From a virus (Duplodnaviria; Caudoviricetes): a stretch of 64,000 nucleotides of DNA. The stretch is taken from positions 32,001 through 96,000 of the IMG/VR virus record IMGVR_UViG_3300048762_000252; one strand, given 5' to 3'. Below, piece by piece: positions 5 to 54,682 of the stretch. A program made the translations under genes and the position numbers. Below the pieces are notes generated by a model. It was not told the origin of the DNA, ran no database searches, and saw nothing but the letters and a program-made list of their open reading frames with translations. Position 1 is the stretch's first letter. Each line of letters starts with the position of its first letter.

Positions 5-682
5 GTGTATGAAGAAATGGAACCATTTTTTATAAATGAATACAAAACATTGGTTCCTCAAGGATACAACATGACAACAGGTGGTGAAGGAAGTCCAACA
101 CTAACAACTTCAGAAGAGACCCGATACAAACGTAGCGAAGCTGCCAAAGCGCAACACGCCGATCCAGTAAAGAAAGCCACACATAAAGCCGCAATGAAAG
201 AGATGTCACAACGCCAAGAAGTACGGCAACAACGTTCTGAATCCGCTAATAAGCGTTGGTCTGATCCTGCATTTGAAGCAAAAATGCAAGTCAAATATGC
301 AACACCGGAATCTCAAGAAAAAAGAAGTAAAGCGGCTGCTCGACCTTGTTCTGAAGAGACAAAAGAAAAAATTCGTCAATCTCAAATAGGAAAACCAAGA
401 AGGCCGCATACAGTCGAAGAAAAGAATCGTTTGCAAGCTGCATGGACACCAGAAGCAAAAGAAAAACAAAGGCAAATAATGCTTGGAACGAAGCGTGGAT
501 CTTATCACATCGATCCGACTAAACCAAGAAAAAAGTTTTCTGAAGAAACACTACAACGAATCCGTGCCGCTGCTCAAAGGCGTGGTGAGTTAATGAAAGG
601 AAGAAAACTCTCTGAAGAAACCAAACAGAAAATGAGCATTGCTCAAAGCAACCGGCAAAAGGTCGCTAACGCTATATCCTAA
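5..682 (+). CDS. GIY-YIG homing endonuclease, C-terminal part with NUMOD3-like repeats (5' end outside window)
   Basis: EMEPFFI..Y.T..P.GYNMTTGGEG closely matches 35803-36807; repeated SEETK.K(M/I)S motifs. Confidence 0.8.
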   Translation: MYEEMEPFFINEYKTLVPQGYNMTTGGEGSPTLTTSEETRYKRSEAAKAQHADPVKKATHKAAMKEMSQRQEVRQQRSESANKRWSDPAFEAKMQVKYATPESQEKRSKAAARPCSEETKEKIRQSQIGKPRRPHTVEEKNRLQAAWTPEAKEKQRQIMLGTKRGSYHIDPTKPRKKFSEETLQRIRAAAQRRGELMKGRKLSEETKQKMSIAQSNRQKVANAIS

Positions 683-23013: not shown

Positions 23014-23090
23014 TGGAGGGCCTGAAGAGACTTGAACTCTCATTGTCCATTTACGGTATTTCGTTTAGGAAACGAAGCCGGTACAGGCCC
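23014..23090 (-). tRNA. non-canonical tRNA-Arg(CCT) lacking a D-arm
   Basis: acceptor GGGCCTG/CAGGCCC-TCCA, anticodon arm TTCGT-TTCCTAA-ACGAA, T arm GAGAG-TTCAAGT-CTCTT. Confidence 0.75.
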
Positions 23091-23567
23091 CTTCAATACC
23101 CCTGCATGTACTGCACCATGACAATTGTGACAGAGAAGTACGCAACTGTGTAGTTCCTGCTTTATACGCAGCTTCGACCAACCTCGCATGTGCGTAAAAT
23201 TAGGATCTTTCTGAGCGGGATCTGTATGATGAACGGCTAAGGAACACTGAAATTTTTTGTACCCGCAGATACGGCATTTTCCACCTAGAAAGTCTCGTGC
23301 AAATTGTTTTCGCCCTTCACATCGTGTCTTGTTGTAAGTAGCGTGACAAACCATGCACATTGAACGCATCTTGCCATAAAAGCAAGAAGGGTTTTCTTCT
23401 TCACATTGAACACAGAAAAAAGCAGAGACATAGCCGATGGGTCTGGTCCGGTGCAAACCGAAGGGAGAGCATTTAAGGCAATAACGACGTGCGCTAAGAT
23501 TCCTTTTCTTACCAAACACAAATACAAAATTGGGAAAGCAACTTCCACAGTTGTCACAGATCGGCAT
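23040..23567 (-). CDS. tRNA-associated HNH endonuclease
   Basis: GGKC.ICGY......L.VHH.DP..KD...E...C.LLCHNCH..VH. Confidence 0.85.
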   Translation of the reverse strand: MPICDNCGSCFPNFVFVFGKKRNLSARRYCLKCSPFGLHRTRPIGYVSAFFCVQCEEENPSCFYGKMRSMCMVCHATYNKTRCEGRKQFARDFLGGKCRICGYKKFQCSLAVHHTDPAQKDPNFTHMRGWSKLRIKQELHSCVLLCHNCHGAVHAGVLKGPVPASFPKRNTVNGQ

Positions 23568-23586
23568 AGTTCACTCTTCGTAAAAT

Positions 23587-23665
23587 TGGTATCCCTGACT
23601 GGACTCGAACCAGCATTGATCCATTTACTCGGCTACGCATTAGAAGTGCGTTGAGATACAGGGAC
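23587..23665 (-). tRNA. non-canonical tRNA-Arg(TCT) lacking a D-arm
   Basis: GTCCCTG/CAGGGAT-ACCA, ACGCA-CTTCTAA-TGCGT, GCTGG-TTCGAGT-CCAGT. Confidence 0.75.
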
Positions 23666-23671
23666 ATAACT

Positions 23672-23746
23672 TGGTAGACCCGGCAGAATTCGAATCTGCA
23701 TTTTAGCGTTCGGGGCGCTATATCCTTTCCGTTGGATGACGGGTCC
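23672..23746 (-). tRNA. tRNA-Arg(CCG)
   Basis: cloverleaf; TAGCG-CCCCGAA-CGCTA; CCA end. Confidence 0.88.
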
Positions 23747-23752
23747 AAAACT

Positions 23753-23857
23753 TGGTGGAGTGAACGGGAATCGAACCCGCCATCTCTGGCCGAGAATGCC
23801 ACTTTCGCTCGGTGCCAACCGATCCCAACCGCCGATGGCTGGACACGTTTTCACCCC
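23753..23857 (-). ncRNA. 105-nt tRNA-like RNA with Ala identity (G3:U70, A73) and atypical body
   Basis: GGGGTGA/TCACTCC-ACCA acceptor, GCGGG-TTCGATT-CCCGT T arm, three internal hairpins. Confidence 0.7.
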
Positions 23858-24359: not shown

Positions 24360-25085
24360 ATGACTTTACTAAAAGAACAAATTCTAAACTTGAGATCAAA
24401 AGGTTATTCATACAACCGCATTCAAAAACAACTTAAATGTTCTAAAGGAACAATATCCTTTCATTGTGGGAAAGGACAAAGAGATAAAACAAATATTCGT
24501 TGTCAAATAAATCGAAAAAAGAATCCCACATTTACATGTACTCATTGCGGGATTGCCTTTCATCGAAAAAAGAGAAGCTCTATTTTTCCAAACAATCCTT
24601 TTTGCTCAGTTGATTGTTTTCGTAATCATCAACAATCTAAATGGAAATGTAAAAAGTGCAATGTTCAAATCAATAAAAGACGATCATATTGCAATCAATG
24701 TCGGAAAAAATACATACGACCACGAGTTGTATCACCATACACATCAACGAAAAGGCACCGTCAACGCATCAAAGAACGGGCCGTAGAATATAAAGGCGGC
24801 AGTTGCGTCGTTTGCGGATATAATCGTTGTCTTCGATCTCTTGAATTTCATCATATAGATCCTAACCAAAAAGATTTCACTATTTCACAAGGTTCTCATC
24901 GATCTTGGAACGATATAATTTCTGAATTAGATAAGTGTATTCTTATCTGCTCCAATTGTCATTGTGAAGTTCATGATGGTATGATTTCAATAGATGATTT
25001 GGTAGTCCCGGCTGGATTTGAACCAGCGACCTCCGGTTTCGTAGACCGGCATTCTGAATCCGCTGAACTACGGGACCACATTTAA
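24360..25085 (+). CDS. HNH endonuclease with HTH and Zn fingers, antisense to tRNA cluster
   Basis: KGGSC..CGYNRC..SLEFHHIDP..KDF...ELDKCILICSNCH.EVH; TAAATA-N5-ATG. Confidence 0.88.
   Translation: MTLLKEQILNLRSKGYSYNRIQKQLKCSKGTISFHCGKGQRDKTNIRCQINRKKNPTFTCTHCGIAFHRKKRSSIFPNNPFCSVDCFRNHQQSKWKCKKCNVQINKRRSYCNQCRKKYIRPRVVSPYTSTKRHRQRIKERAVEYKGGSCVVCGYNRCLRSLEFHHIDPNQKDFTISQGSHRSWNDIISELDKCILICSNCHCEVHDGMISIDDLVVPAGFEPATSGFVDRHSESAELRDHI
25000..25077 (-). tRNA. tRNA-Arg(ACG)
   Basis: CCGGT-CTACGAA-ACCGG; CCA. Confidence 0.93.
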
Positions 25086-25293: not shown

Positions 25294-25355
25294 AAGAATT
25301 GAATCTGCGATAGCAGCCAGCCACACACACAGCACAACGAATGCAATAGCGGGCG

Positions 25356-25406
25356 CTATCGCTTTCGTTTACTAATGCTCCTGACTCTAATTCGTGTGCG
25401 TGTCAT
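25356..25406 (-). CDS. putative leader peptide MTRTRIRVRSISKRKR of the tRNA operon
   Basis: 16 codons plus TAG between late promoter and first tRNA; codons match downstream anticodons. Confidence 0.6.
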   Translation of the reverse strand: MTRTRIRVRSISKRKR

Positions 25407-28155: not shown

Positions 28156-28542
28156 ATGAACTGCATCATGTGTCAATGCTCATTTGACTTTAAAAAAGAC
28201 AAAAAATTTTGTTCTCTTAAATGTAAGAATAAGTTTCATGGAAACTCTGAATTTCAAATTCAACGTGGACTGAAAAGAAAAATCAAATACATTAACGAAC
28301 GAGGCGGCGGATGTCAAAAATGTGGATATAATAGAAATTATGCAGCATTATGTTTTCATCACCGAGATCCTACATTAAAAATATTTGAAGTTGAATTGAA
28401 TAAAATTTCATGCCTTTCTCAAGAAAGAGTTAACGCCGAAGTCCAAAAATGTGATATTCTTTGCCATAATTGTCATATAGAAACACATTTTCCAAAGTAT
28501 ATGGTACCCGGCCATGGAATCGAACCATGTTCTAGTCGATAA
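28156..28542 (+). CDS. tRNA-associated HNH endonuclease (antisense)
   Basis: GGGCQKCGYNRNYAALCFHHRDP..K.F...EVQKCDILCHNCH.E.H; TAAATA-N5-ATG. Confidence 0.88.
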   Translation: MNCIMCQCSFDFKKDKKFCSLKCKNKFHGNSEFQIQRGLKRKIKYINERGGGCQKCGYNRNYAALCFHHRDPTLKIFEVELNKISCLSQERVNAEVQKCDILCHNCHIETHFPKYMVPGHGIEPCSSR

Positions 28543-28593
28543 TCTGTCGAGACCGCTTATAGGGCGGCTTGAGAAACCATCCTCCCACCGGGC
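28502..28593 (-). tRNA. tRNA with TAT anticodon (Ile AUA) and long variable arm
   Basis: GCCCGGT/GCCGGGT-ACCA; GCCGC-CCTATAA-GCGGT; TCGA..TCGA variable stem; CATGG-TTCGATT-CCATG. Confidence 0.8.
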
Positions 28594-31703: not shown

Positions 31704-32102
31704 TCAATAATTTGGATGGTTGCCATGTGAGTGCCCGGTTTCGGCAATATAGTCGGCTTCTTGAGACTCCATAAAAGCCATGTCATTGCTCTTCAGAAGC
31801 TCACCAGTCAATTCCTGGGTGGCATAGGCTACGATGCCTTCACCGTCCGCTTCAAGGGCGTAGGCAGCTTCTAATGCGAAATATAGAGGTTTGGTAAAGG
31901 TGACCGGCGCAAGCCATTCTGTAGCACCATTGTCGCCAGGAACTTCTTTCCAGCCAAGATGGAGTAAAAAGGTCTTCTTTGCAATGAATACCAAAAGGTT
32001 CAAGGCATCAATTTCGTAATCGTTAATGGGCATCAATTTGGATGAATCATTTACATCCAAGATAATGGTTTCTACTAATTCGATTGCGTCAGGCATTGTC
32101 AT
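31704..32102 (-). CDS. hypothetical protein
   Basis: co-oriented ORF with SD. Confidence 0.5.
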   Translation of the reverse strand: MTMPDAIELVETIILDVNDSSKLMPINDYEIDALNLLVFIAKKTFLLHLGWKEVPGDNGATEWLAPVTFTKPLYFALEAAYALEADGEGIVAYATQELTGELLKSNDMAFMESQEADYIAETGHSHGNHPNY

Positions 32103-51205: not shown

Positions 51206-54200
51206 TCACTTCTTTCCAGAATTAAAGTCCACAGGACAAACTCCGGTATCGCACCCTATATGCTCACGACCAATGTCTTCAGTGAGTTTTGCAGCCTGTA
51301 TTTTTTCAACGATGGATGAGAATTTCTTTTCACTGATTGATTCTTCCGGTTGATATTCATAGCTGGAAGTATCTTCTTGTGGCATAATCGAACAGCATCG
51401 TACTTGTGACTGATATTTCAAAATCATCTTTTTAAAATGGTCGAAGTCCGTCAGATTCGGCTTATATTTGAGCGTATATGAAATTTGCCCACCGTAAATG
51501 TCTTCTACCGGCTTGCCATCAGGAGTAACGCCGCAAATCCAATACTTCTCACCAAGCATGAGCCATTTGAATTGTTCTTCAGGTGTGGCATTCGCCGCTG
51601 TAACCAACTTATCACCCATACCAAGCGTTGTGATTGTCGGTTCGGTTGGAAATCCTACAATAGTTGTATTTGTATATTGCGTTAATTTTCTAACAGGGTA
51701 TCCAGCTTTCTTGTATACTTCTACAAGAGGGTCGTCATTACTGAATTGAACCCATCGTAGAAAATATTCCATTGACGGAAGGTGCCATCCTTCCGTCAAA
51801 CCAAACAATTTACTAACAGACCCACTCGGTTTAACGGTAGTGATTGTATGTGGCGGTTTCACCCCAAGTTCTTTTGCATAGCTTTGTGCTTCTTCATACA
51901 CAATATTGTTGAAACGAGCCATTTGCATCCAAAATGGTTTGGATTTTTCTTCATCAATCAGATCCTTAAATCCAAATCCGAAAAATTTGTACGCAAATTC
52001 ATGCACGCCTGTTATACCTACTCCGATACGATTGGTGCGTTGAACTTCTTTGCTATAGATTGAATCCATAAGGTTCACACGCATAAGCGCACGAGTTGAT
52101 ACTCTAAACGCTTCTTCAGCTTCTTCAATTGTGTTAGCATGAAACGGTACAACATCTGCCAAACAACAAAAACCACCAAGTACATTTAATGGGATTTCTC
52201 CGCACGGGTTTACGATGGTATGGTACTTCTTTTTCTTGGCACGCTTTGCTAGTCTAGACATCAATATTTGTGTATCATCATTAATCTGATATTTTTTTGA
52301 TCCAACATAATCACCACGATTCAGATCATTCCATCCATCGTCTTTCTGAACAAGCAAATGAGAGTTGATAAATCCTGGTTCACCAGTACCGTCTGCGTAT
52401 GCTGCACTACAGACCATCTTGAACACTTTTTTAGCGTGCTTGGCACGTGGAGTTTTGTCTTTAGGATTCTTCACAAGTGTCCAAAATTCATCATCAACAG
52501 TAACAGAGTTGTTCGATGACCAAAGAAATGCGTTTGGATGATTGTTCTTACGGAAATCTAAAATTTGAAACGTATCTTTACCATGAAATTCCAACGGACG
52601 TTTGATTGTGATAAAATCGAAGCTGGTAGAATCGCTCCAATGCTTTGTGGACATGCGTGCTGAATTGTGTACCAAAACGCCTTGACAGACAAAACAATTA
52701 CCATCAGCAACTTCCAAATCGTAAGTTTTAGACGGCATCCCACCAGAAATAGCAATGACTTCTTGTGGGTAATAACACGTAGAAATTAATGTATTATTCT
52801 TCCAAGCATCGTATGAGCTATTATTGTTAGTCGCAATCCGACCTTTTATGTCACTGTATGTGAGCTTTCTTTCAAAAATTGCTTTCGTTACAAATTTACA
52901 AGGGTAGGAATCTTGATGCCCCCGATGTTCATTTGTTGTCAGAGCCTTTGCGCCTGATGTCAAAGTTGAAAATTGAATTTTATTACAATTATTGATGAAA
53001 TTCAAACTTCTCTGAGGTTTCCATCCTTCTCCTTTCGGTTCAGATTCATTTAGCCGCAGCATTACACCAATTGATGCTGCGAGGGCTTGTAAATCTTCAA
53101 CCCAGGAAAAATAAATTGAAGTTACCAATTTTTGTGGTCTGTTTTTTGTACACCCATCGCTGTCCATCACTCCTTGCAGATATGCTGCACGTATTTCTGG
53201 AGAAGCCGACTTAATAAAATTGGGAATTTTCAACAGTGTATTGGGTTGTTTGATGTGCTTGAAGAAATATGAAGCAAGAGATTTGCTACTCACTCGCACC
53301 TGTTTCATGTTTCCTACATCACTAATAACTGCTTTTACACCAAATCGTGATAGTACATCTGCCGCCCGTAACGCAATATTTTCGTATTCTTTGTCTTGTG
53401 AAATTCTAATGTTTCCGTGGGTGTCAGTCAACTCTACGTATCCATCACCATGAATCAGACCAATCAACCACGCAACATCAATATCAAGAGCAGGAATTAT
53501 AATATCCATCAACGTAGTAGCATGTGGCGACCGGACATAATCATCAGAAGGCAAGTGCGTCAAACCGCCCTCATCTATAGTAGGAATCCAAAACAGTCGA
53601 TCACCAACCGATAACTCACTTGCTAACTTCCATTCATAGGAATCAACACCGGTAAGAATGGCAACTCTATGATTTGGAGTGCATACAAGTTTTCCATTCT
53701 TATAAATTACAGTAATTGTTTCTTGTTCTCCTTGATTGAAAGTTGCAGTGACAGGCTTCCATCCATTTGGCGTCGATACTAAATCACCTATAGATACATT
53801 TTCAATGGCCTTAAAACCTGCATTCTTCACCAGGACTCGTTGGCCTTCAGCAATACATCTTCTTGCACCACCGACAAGCACGCATTCGGCAAAGTAGTGG
53901 TCCAGGTACATCGCTTGCTTCCAGGGCGATAAACCGGCTCCCTTGAGGCTTGCAGCCTTGTTAAACGCATCCATAAGAGCAACAGGACCGCTGGCTGGCC
54001 GATTTTGCATTCCTTTGATTGGTAGACCTTTGGCACGAACTTTCGAAAAATCTAAAATGAGCATTTTCTCTGCATGAATTTTTTCAAATGCAGCATTCTC
54101 CCAAATTTCCAGACCCTTAGCCCACCCTTCTCTGGAATCTGGAATTTCATACCACATAACATTGGGACCTTCTTTGCCATACTTATGGCGGGCATCACGC

Positions 54201-54682
54201 ACACATTCATGCGCCGATTGGTTAAAATCTGGATGAGAGGAATCCAATACACAACGAAGATTTGGTGCGTTATCCCAATTCACTAACATCATATCATCGT
54301 CATAACAGCGACCTACACCAGAGCCATTAAGTAGAAGATAAAAGAGAAGGAATGACGAAGATGCAGTACTGCAATTGGTAAAGCATTCCATATTCCTATT
54401 GGGTTGTGTTTCATCACCATGTTGAAGATGTCTTCCAGACATGAGTGTGTTGCCATTGGCTATGTGTTTGCGAAGTAAAAGATATTCGGCTTCAGATGAG
54501 TGAATTGAACCATCAAAAAGAAGACTGTTACCACGAGCAACACGAGTAGCAACATCCAACCATGTTTCCCATTCTCCATTTTCTTTTTTTCTTAGCACGG
54601 TTCTCTCGGCGATAGCGAGACCCATACCTGAAGAAATAGGACGAAATGAAATAGATGGAACGGTGTTCTGTGATTGCGACAT
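51206..54682 (-). CDS. nrdJ: class II (B12-dependent) ribonucleotide reductase with intein
   Basis: SGR.L, FTNCS, G.GVG, DSREGW, ASGP, VGGARR|SA, NPCGEI, TVKPSGS.SKL, C-terminal C..G.CP. Confidence 0.92.
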   Translation of the reverse strand: MSQSQNTVPSISFRPISSGMGLAIAERTVLRKKENGEWETWLDVATRVARGNSLLFDGSIHSSEAEYLLLRKHIANGNTLMSGRHLQHGDETQPNRNMECFTNCSTASSSFLLFYLLLNGSGVGRCYDDDMMLVNWDNAPNLRCVLDSSHPDFNQSAHECVRDARHKYGKEGPNVMWYEIPDSREGWAKGLEIWENAAFEKIHAEKMLILDFSKVRAKGLPIKGMQNRPASGPVALMDAFNKAASLKGAGLSPWKQAMYLDHYFAECVLVGGARRCIAEGQRVLVKNAGFKAIENVSIGDLVSTPNGWKPVTATFNQGEQETITVIYKNGKLVCTPNHRVAILTGVDSYEWKLASELSVGDRLFWIPTIDEGGLTHLPSDDYVRSPHATTLMDIIIPALDIDVAWLIGLIHGDGYVELTDTHGNIRISQDKEYENIALRAADVLSRFGVKAVISDVGNMKQVRVSSKSLASYFFKHIKQPNTLLKIPNFIKSASPEIRAAYLQGVMDSDGCTKNRPQKLVTSIYFSWVEDLQALAASIGVMLRLNESEPKGEGWKPQRSLNFINNCNKIQFSTLTSGAKALTTNEHRGHQDSYPCKFVTKAIFERKLTYSDIKGRIATNNNSSYDAWKNNTLISTCYYPQEVIAISGGMPSKTYDLEVADGNCFVCQGVLVHNSARMSTKHWSDSTSFDFITIKRPLEFHGKDTFQILDFRKNNHPNAFLWSSNNSVTVDDEFWTLVKNPKDKTPRAKHAKKVFKMVCSAAYADGTGEPGFINSHLLVQKDDGWNDLNRGDYVGSKKYQINDDTQILMSRLAKRAKKKKYHTIVNPCGEIPLNVLGGFCCLADVVPFHANTIEEAEEAFRVSTRALMRVNLMDSIYSKEVQRTNRIGVGITGVHEFAYKFFGFGFKDLIDEEKSKPFWMQMARFNNIVYEEAQSYAKELGVKPPHTITTVKPSGSVSKLFGLTEGWHLPSMEYFLRWVQFSNDDPLVEVYKKAGYPVRKLTQYTNTTIVGFPTEPTITTLGMGDKLVTAANATPEEQFKWLMLGEKYWICGVTPDGKPVEDIYGGQISYTLKYKPNLTDFDHFKKMILKYQSQVRCCSIMPQEDTSSYEYQPEESISEKKFSSIVEKIQAAKLTEDIGREHIGCDTGVCPVDFNSGKK
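52664..53857 (-). mobile_element. 398-aa intein with LAGLIDADG endonuclease
   Basis: starts CIAEG, block B TPNHR, LIGLIHGDG / YLQGVMDSDG, ends YDLEV...VHN followed by Ser. Confidence 0.95.

Follow-up and report, generated by a model that had tools for sequence, protein, structure and literature searches.

A large family of putative phage arginine tRNAs with a re-threaded D-arm

Can a tRNA gene that leaves no room for a D hairpin still specify a working arginine tRNA of a phage, and if so, how might its RNA attain the tRNA shape? The question arises from two elements, here called t1 and t2, at the downstream end of a tRNA cluster in IMG/VR virus record IMGVR_UViG_3300048762_000252, of which a stretch of 64,000 nucleotides was analysed (the window; positions 32,001 to 96,000 of the record). 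The results are best understood if t1 (for AGG) and t2 (for AGA and, by wobble, AGG) are functional phage arginine tRNAs belonging to a large, phage-borne family of non-cloverleaf tRNAs. We put the probability of this reading at roughly 0.7.

The outer parts of both elements are those of an ordinary tRNA. Read from 23090 to 23014, t1 comprises the 5' acceptor strand (GGGCCTG, partner CAGGCCC), the trinucleotide TAC, the triplet CGG, a single C and the anticodon arm TTCGT-TTCCTAA-ACGAA, followed by ATA, the triplet CCG, the segment TAAATGGACAAT, the T arm GAGAG-TTCAAGT-CTCTT, the 3' acceptor strand, a T as discriminator and CCA. The corresponding order in t2, read from 23665 to 23587, is acceptor GTCCCTG (partner CAGGGAT), TAT, CTC, A and the anticodon arm ACGCA-CTTCTAA-TGCGT, then AGCC, GAG, TAAATGGATCAAT, the T arm GCTGG-TTCGAGT-CCAGT, the 3' acceptor strand, discriminator A and CCA. 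All seven acceptor pairs form in t1, and all seven in t2 if G1-U72 is counted; CCA is encoded in both. The anticodon arms have the canonical five-base-pair stem and seven-nucleotide loop with U33 and a purine at 37, and the T arms combine a five-base-pair stem with loops of the TTCRANY type. Acceptor and anticodon stems are connected by 7 nucleotides in both genes, so that the D hairpin (10-13/22-25) is absent, and this connector contains a triplet complementary to one lying 3-4 nucleotides past the anticodon arm (CGG/CCG in t1, CTC/GAG in t2). On the 3' side of the second triplet both genes continue with TAAATGGA(T)CAAT and then enter the T stem. The layout set out in the initial annotation is exact to the base on the minus strand, and the short link and the complementary triplets that it described can be read directly in the sequence. 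Its statement that the D-arm is missing holds insofar as neither gene has a D hairpin; beyond that it needs revision, the evidence supporting a D-arm that is re-threaded rather than missing. In this arrangement the strand following U8-A9 would serve as the 3' D-strand, and the strand following the anticodon arm as the 5' D-strand running into the D loop.

The proposed helix was assessed in a family of related sequences. Five motif scans of IMG/VR were performed, four of which were read with a scanner of our own; the remaining one (the third pattern) was not strict enough and returned noise for the most part. Acceptance by the scanner depends on acceptor, anticodon and T stems, a loop of the NCU type and 4-9 nucleotides of connector; the extra helix is not required. 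From a first set of 76, the family came to 143 distinct members on IMG/VR contigs and in phage records, 107 with anticodon TCT and 36 with CCT. In alignment A1, where neither the scanner nor search pattern 2 had called for the three pairs of the extra helix, this helix (columns 11-13 with 42-44) is 98.7% paired, the outer pair being CG (73) or UA (3), the middle pair GC (37), UA (24) or AU (15), and the inner pair GC (37) or CG (36). The covariation score was matched by none of 500 column shuffles (0/500), pairing falls to about 40% when the partner is shifted by one to three columns, and RNAalifold, working from the alignment alone, returns the identical structure with the extra helix included. 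Members of the CCT type bring at least ten more helix sequences, among them CAG/CTG, CGC/GCG, ACC/GGT, CAC/GTG, CCC/GGG, CCT/AGG, CGA/TCG, CGT/ACG and TCC/GGA, and across the family more than ten sequence types are seen for this helix. One subtype, which supplies the G-G exceptions in the pair counts, can form four pairs between UGGC and GY(G)CA with a bulged G. Every helix of the family is 95-100% paired, with pervasive compensatory change; all four helices, including the helix across the anticodon arm, exist and covary. The alternative topology that the initial annotation had put forward from two genes is therefore one that covaries throughout a large family: motif scans of viral contigs and phage records brought together the 143 distinct members, and covariation among homologs, on which that annotation had staked the idea, is present at the proposed helix.

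The relationship of t1 and t2 to this family was quantified with a covariance model, R1, for which 76 family members, t1 and t2 among them, served as seed. Under this model t2 reaches 89.2 bits (E 4e-25) and t1 68.7 bits (E 9e-19), values that are in part so by construction, both sequences being in the seed; members outside the seed score 44-79 bits, and the ordinary tRNAs of the window at most 27.4 bits. The match of t1 and t2 to the family is far beyond chance. Established gene finders respond differently. ARAGORN called neither element and failed on all 186 family occurrences on which it was tried. The general tRNA model of Rfam (RF00005) detects t2 at 36.9 bits, above its gathering threshold of 29 bits, by compressing 15 D-arm positions to 4 nucleotides and admitting a 17-nucleotide insertion in the variable region; on the family it yields about 37-39 bits at best, or no match. 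The suspicion that standard scanners may miss these genes proved justified, as ARAGORN misses both and Rfam misses t1 and sees t2 with its D arm deleted.

Members of the family are found well beyond the metagenomic record. Searches with blastn located an unannotated look-alike in Agrobacterium phage Atu_ph04 and further ones in numerous coliphages and phages of Salmonella and Klebsiella, and one subtype of 82 nucleotides occurs in 266 cultured-phage records, its carriers including Felixounavirus, Vequintavirinae, Asteriusvirus (e.g., 121Q), kuraviruses, T5-like Klebsiella phages and Streptomyces phages. The 82-nucleotide subtype is for the most part unannotated there, or mislabelled as tRNA-OTHER, tRNA-TERM, tRNA-Leu(taa) or tRNA-Val. 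Megablast of the whole tRNA cluster against cultured phages gave no match, and blastn with t1 alone gave matches at the level of the T arm only. A scan of prokaryotes (one genome each from 185,579 species) returned 35 matches, of which 26 were due to chance, with the stems absent, and 9 were real; all 9 come from contigs of metagenome bins, and isolate genomes contributed none. The same pattern gave more than 115 matches in IMG/VR, a far smaller collection, and the family therefore appears to be phage-borne.

If the displaced segment does the work of a D loop, the nucleotides that make the tertiary core of a tRNA should be recognizable in it. Near-invariant in the family are U8-A9, the U-A-A that comes 3' of the extra helix and the A-U preceding the T stem; in 129 distinct sequences of the alignment, U8-A9, U-A-A, GG-A and A-U are conserved. 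The GG that the initial annotation had placed in the displaced, D-loop-like segment is kept in all aligned members but one, including those retrieved with a pattern that ignored this segment. Both genes of the window fit the family consensus U-A-A-(N)-N-G-G-A ... A-U, each with TAAATGGA..AAT. The third letter of U-A-A covaries with the base before the T stem, the combination being A-U in 121 sequences, G-C in 5 (from at least four lineages) and G-G in 1; in the alignment this A-U/G-C pair behaves as the R15-Y48 Levitt pair of ordinary tRNAs.

The base after the GG deserves separate consideration. A main arginine identity element in bacteria is A20, directly after G18-G19, and the identity set of the E. 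coli arginyl-tRNA synthetase (ArgRS) comprises A20, C35 and U/G36. Both t1 and t2 have C35 and U36, together with an A after GG in an A20-like place. Model R1 also retrieved rewired members with the anticodons ACG, UCG and CCG, plus single ones with UAU and CUU. As read from the rows of the alignment, members with arginine anticodons (TCT, CCT, ACG, TCG, CCG) have A after GG, the exception being one CCG member with GAA, and both of the non-arginine members seen (UAU, CUU) have U there. That the A after GG is an arginine identity signal is thus suggested by a contrast with only two non-arginine sequences. The members with other anticodons lie on viral contigs at L316:3566-3642 (+), L309:11003-11080 (-), L073:1178-1253 (-), L010:8742-8817 (-) and L337:6312-6385 (+), and carry UAU (Ile) and CUU (Lys), each with GGT for GGA, and ACG, UCG and CCG (Arg), so that the design reaches beyond AGR decoders.

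Supply and demand for arginine codons agree with a decoding role. In 141 long open reading frames AGA makes up 22% of the arginine codons (11 per 1000 codons) and AGG 5%, and ARAGORN found no cloverleaf Arg-UCU or Arg-CCU on the genome, so that t1 and t2 would complete a phage arginine set of ACG, CCG, UCU and CCU. Elsewhere, 128 of the 137 rewired TCT loci have no Arg-tct called by ARAGORN in the fetched flank, where a median of four other tRNAs is present, and at none of 42 loci did ARAGORN call an Arg-cct beside the rewired CCT gene. Both rewired types occur together at eleven loci, often 4-7 nucleotides apart. Two divergent copies had been taken initially as an argument for function, and the family bears this out: TCT and CCT members form separate old lineages that often stand side by side in other phages, which speaks for function rather than decay. 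An exchange between the two forms of tRNA is suggested by kuravirus TH42, whose rewired gene lies directly 3' of a conserved upstream flank. In the related Escherichia phage vB_EcoP-101114UKE3, where the match including that flank is 96% identical, the same slot is occupied by a tRNA-Arg(tct) that is a cloverleaf but shares its anticodon loop and T arm with the rewired gene. It appears from these alignments that kuravirus-type coliphages fill one genome slot with either a rewired or a normal tRNA-Arg(UCU). Downstream of its rewired tRNA-Arg, Escherichia virus TH42 also carries an orphan T arm and acceptor 3' half with CCA (L038:1590-1650, +), which looks like the remnant of a displaced cloverleaf tRNA.

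How could such an order of segments yield an L-shaped molecule? We propose that the block 10-21, the 5' D-strand together with the D loop, is transposed from its place between position 9 and the 3' D-strand to a new site that follows the variable region and precedes position 48. In this order the chain would begin with the acceptor 5' strand, U8, A9 and one nucleotide; continue with three nucleotides acting as 3' D-strand (in place of 23-25), a 26-like nucleotide and the anticodon arm; and proceed through a linker of 3-8 nucleotides to three nucleotides acting as 5' D-strand (in place of 10-12). There would follow U(13)-A14-A15-..-G18-G19-A20-..-A21-A-U48, that is, the motif U-A-A-(N)-U-G-G-A..A-U with the equivalents of A14, R15, G18, G19, A20, A21 and Y48, before the chain ends with the T arm and the acceptor 3' strand. 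In a normal tRNA the D and anticodon helices are stacked, with 22-25, 26 and 27..31 as one unbroken side and 39..43-44 followed by 10-13 as the other. The three new joints of the proposed scheme (9 to 22/23, 44-47 to 10, and 21 to 48) would link residues that are adjacent in the canonical L-shape. The rebuilt D-stem is thus predicted to stack on the anticodon stem and the GG to dock on the T loop, with the L-shape and the distance from anticodon to CCA preserved. Host ArgRS would charge such a tRNA via the A20 equivalent, C35 and U36, and RNase P, EF-Tu and the ribosome would accept it in its rewired form. On balance we lean towards regarding the family as natural, translationally active non-cloverleaf tRNAs of bacterial systems, common in phages (among them classic coliphages and phages of Salmonella), in which a permuted D-arm rebuilds the L-shaped core. 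The E. coli translation machinery has been shown to take a synthetic D-arm-less tRNA without adaptation (PMC11551756).

Other explanations differ in what they make of the displaced segment. The elements might work as tRNAs of a looser, mitochondrial type, in which the three-base-pair helix does no more than lengthen the anticodon hairpin and the long stretch on the 3' side links the parts flexibly. In favour of this view, the fold amounts formally to a three-way junction, D-armless tRNAs do work in mitochondria and a synthetic one in E. coli, and a helix of just three pairs is not favoured by nearest-neighbour folding. A flexible connector would nonetheless hardly be so constrained: U8-A9, U-A-A, GG-A and A-U are kept in the 129 distinct aligned sequences, the A/U pair switches jointly to G/C in at least four lineages, as canonical core contacts predict, and the members, with 74-76 nucleotides before CCA, are full-size and not shortened. 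We consider the loose form unlikely for these reasons. More doubtful still is the idea that the RNAs do not decode at all and are mimics, which might, for instance, act as decoys for host nucleases or toxins directed against tRNA-Arg, soak these up like sponges, or compete for a host factor. Phage tRNAs counter tRNA-cleaving defences according to PMC10264068 and PMC10802454, the cluster is rich in arginine and lysine tRNAs, and an enzyme that recognises the D-arm could be evaded or trapped by so unusual a body. Mimicry leaves unaccounted for that TCT, CCT, ACG, TCG and CCG are all covered, with intact seven-nucleotide loops, U33 and A37; that a seven-base-pair acceptor, the discriminator and often an encoded CCA are retained; that A follows GG in members with arginine anticodons and is absent there in the two non-arginine members; and that a rewired gene replaces a normal tRNA-Arg(UCU) in the same slot, a cloverleaf Arg-UCU usually not being found nearby.

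Very improbable, in our assessment, is a role as cis-acting DNA or RNA elements of the tRNA cluster, such as processing signals or homing sites of the neighbouring HNH endonucleases. One HNH gene separates t2 from t1, a second is antisense nearby, and HNH genes adjoin family members in other phages; most members, however, have no neighbouring HNH gene, and compensatory changes in four RNA helices indicate selection on an RNA fold rather than on a DNA site. As for decayed tRNA pseudogenes that have lost the D-arm, one might point to gene finders missing the elements and to t1 lacking an Rfam match, but decay would hardly leave 143 distinct members in which each helix is 95-100% paired and compensatory changes are pervasive; we regard it as excluded by the pattern of conservation.

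Returning to t1 and t2 as functional arginine tRNAs, several observations weigh against this assignment. Folding of the single sequences to minimum free energy did not recover the three-base-pair helix, and the z-scores were modest (-2.5 and -1.3). RF00005 gave no match to t1 even at E<=10. The discriminator of t1 is U, which is unusual for a bacterial tRNA-Arg. The open reading frame for the HNH endonuclease (23040-23567) runs on into t1 until its stop, so that its last ~16 codons take up the first 51 nucleotides of t1. A cloverleaf Arg-tct is also present at 9 of the 137 rewired TCT loci, and the rewired gene is therefore not always the sole decoder of AGA. The family is absent from the five nearest cultured phages by capsid (Mosig, Melnitz, S-SKS1, HTVC008M and DLP_6), and because of this absence from the nearest cultured relatives its spread is patchy and probably horizontal. 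Finally, the three-dimensional equivalence proposed above is reasoned from the geometry of yeast tRNA-Phe. Table 1 gives the coordinates of the two genes, their parts and their immediate neighbours.

Table 1. Positions in the window of t1, t2, their component segments and adjoining features.
Feature	Position	Strand	Basis or remark
tRNA cluster	25293 to 23014	minus	six genes called by ARAGORN and Rfam
t2, candidate rewired tRNA-Arg(UCU), 79 nucleotides with encoded CCA	23587..23665	minus	sequence; R1 model 89.2 bits
t2 helix-2 5' strand CTC, proposed to replace the 3' D-strand	23653..23655	minus	pairs with GAG 23628-23630; family columns 11-13/42-44
t2 helix-2 3' strand GAG, proposed to replace the 5' D-strand	23628..23630	minus	family covariation, RNAalifold
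t2 anticodon TCT in loop CTTCTAA (U33, A37)	23642..23644	minus	sequence
t2 D-loop-like segment TAAATGGATCAAT (proposed equivalents of A14, A15, G18, G19, A20, Y48)	23615..23627	minus	family alignment
t1, candidate rewired tRNA-Arg(CCU), 77 nucleotides with encoded CCA	23014..23090	minus	sequence; R1 model 68.7 bits
t1 helix-2 5' strand CGG	23078..23080	minus	pairs with CCG 23054-23056
t1 helix-2 3' strand CCG	23054..23056	minus	pairs with CGG; R1 model
t1 anticodon CCT in loop TTCCTAA	23067..23069	minus	sequence
t1 D-loop-like segment TAAATGGACAAT	23042..23053	minus	sequence; family alignment
HNH endonuclease open reading frame between t2 and t1	23040..23567	minus	phrog_2255, E 3.5e-33, residues 1-163 of 175
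canonical tRNA-Arg(CCG)	23672..23746	minus	ARAGORN; ends 6 nucleotides upstream of t2

The source record is an IMG/VR virus of 166.6 kb with 41.5% G+C and a completeness rating of 79%. Structural genes in the window encode a T4-type portal protein, a scaffold protein and a Gp23 capsid protein, the last ~60% identical to those of the aquatic T4-like phages Pelagibacter phage Mosig, Methylophilales phage Melnitz, Synechococcus phage S-SKS1 and Stenotrophomonas phage DLP_6. The six called genes of the tRNA cluster are Lys(UUU), Ile(GAU), Arg(ACG), Val(GAC), Lys(CUU) and Arg(CCG), and t1 and t2 are two further elements at its downstream end. The 6-nucleotide spacer between tRNA-Arg(CCG) and t2, AGTTAT, is similar to the AGTTTT spacers of the neighbouring tRNAs. 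Between t2 and t1, the HNH endonuclease was identified with PHROGs and not recognised with Pfam. Because TCT and CCT genes are 4-7 nucleotides apart in other phages, its position suggests that an HNH gene was inserted into a tandem TCT/CCT pair. A paralog at ~24402-25085 (+), likewise with phrog_2255 as best match, has a reading frame that runs antisense into tRNA-Arg(ACG) before it stops.

Further elements in and around the cluster deserve mention in their own right. Between tRNA-Lys(CUU) and tRNA-Arg(CCG), with tRNA-like spacing, lies a tRNA-like RNA of 105 nucleotides (23753-23857, -) whose seven-base-pair acceptor includes G3-U70 and which also has a normal T arm, an A as discriminator and CCA; the body of this RNA consists of a long hairpin with a 9-nucleotide loop and then a CCGAG/CTCGG hairpin whose 13-nucleotide loop includes the D-loop-like AAAGUGG. 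It has no anticodon-type loop, is not called by ARAGORN or Rfam and gave no blastn match in cultured phages. Upstream of the cluster, a 16-codon open reading frame MTRTRIRVRSISKRKR (25354-25404, -) follows a late-promoter-like box TATAAATA and is a candidate leader peptide; it is rich in arginine, lysine and isoleucine codons, among them one AGA and one AGG, as noted in the initial annotation, and a terminator-like hairpin begins in its last codons. At 28502-28593 (-) ARAGORN calls a 92-nucleotide tRNA-Ile(tat) with a three-base-pair D stem, C33 (loop CCTATAA) and a long variable arm (TCGA/TCGA hairpin), features unusual for an isoleucine tRNA; considered as a rewired member, it was rejected on account of its D hairpin, its long variable arm and an R1 score of 16.7 bits. 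Outside the window, at record position 102736-102809 (+), ARAGORN reports a 'tRNA-???' with a two-base anticodon (cc), to which R1 gives 13.8 bits. An open reading frame of 1158 amino acids for ribonucleotide reductase (51206-54682, -) is split by intein and homing-endonuclease domains (LAGLIDADG_3, Hom_end, Intein_splicing).

Our study could have importance in several directions. If the proposal is correct, neither the tRNA fold nor its recognition by bacterial RNase P, ArgRS, EF-Tu and the ribosome would depend on cloverleaf connectivity, and a whole class of tRNA genes would escape present gene finders. A rewired, apparently isosteric tRNA would represent a natural experiment that separates connectivity from three-dimensional shape, and it could offer new scaffolds for the design of orthogonal tRNAs. 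Inventories of tRNAs and analyses of codon supply would have to be corrected for hundreds of phage genomes, in which the genes either lack annotation or bear a wrong label (Leu, Val, suppressor or 'OTHER'). Why phages keep the rewired form becomes a question of its own, escape from host enzymes that read the D-arm being one idea. No description of a phage tRNA that is D-armless, rewired or not a cloverleaf came up in a literature search, with subscription journals mostly outside its reach. A 2020 review of non-canonical tRNAs contains no phage case; according to a 2024 paper all known bacterial tRNAs are cloverleaves (PMC11551756), and non-canonical folds are placed in mitochondria alone (PMC11551756; review PMC7609411).

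Comparison with known systems brings out what would be distinctive about the family. With canonical class I tRNA-Arg (RF00005; Arg(ACG) and Arg(CCG) of this window; Arg(tct) of 101114UKE3) it shares the acceptor, U8-A9 and the anticodon and T arms, as well as the TTCRANT loop, the discriminator, CCA, GG followed by A, U33/C35/U36/A37, the length and the placement in phage tRNA clusters; it differs in that rewired D-stem strands flank the anticodon arm and the D-loop motif lies 3', in the position of the variable loop. Circularly permuted and split tRNA genes (Cyanidioschyzon merolae, Nanoarchaeum) also have an altered order of segments, and their processing restores a normal cloverleaf RNA, whereas in the phage family the order differs within one continuous transcript that shows no sign of cutting and rejoining. 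Animal mitochondrial tRNA-Ser(AGY/UCU) (PMC7609411; PMC9427863) likewise has no D hairpin and a short connector, its AGN codon box being shared by coincidence. The mitochondrial D-armless forms are shortened, without the GG/T-loop contact, looser in shape and served by adapted synthetases (PMC9427863; PMC11551756). The phage family is instead of full length (74-76 nucleotides before CCA), keeps the core motifs and would rely on ordinary bacterial machinery. The closest bacterial precedent is the synthetic 'mini HisT' (PMC11551756), which shows that bacterial histidyl-tRNA synthetase (HisRS), EF-Tu and the ribosome tolerate the absence of a D hairpin; mini HisT is an artificial deletion of 11-25 that needed a pnp mutation for stability, whereas the phage tRNAs are natural and appear to keep the missing parts in a new order.

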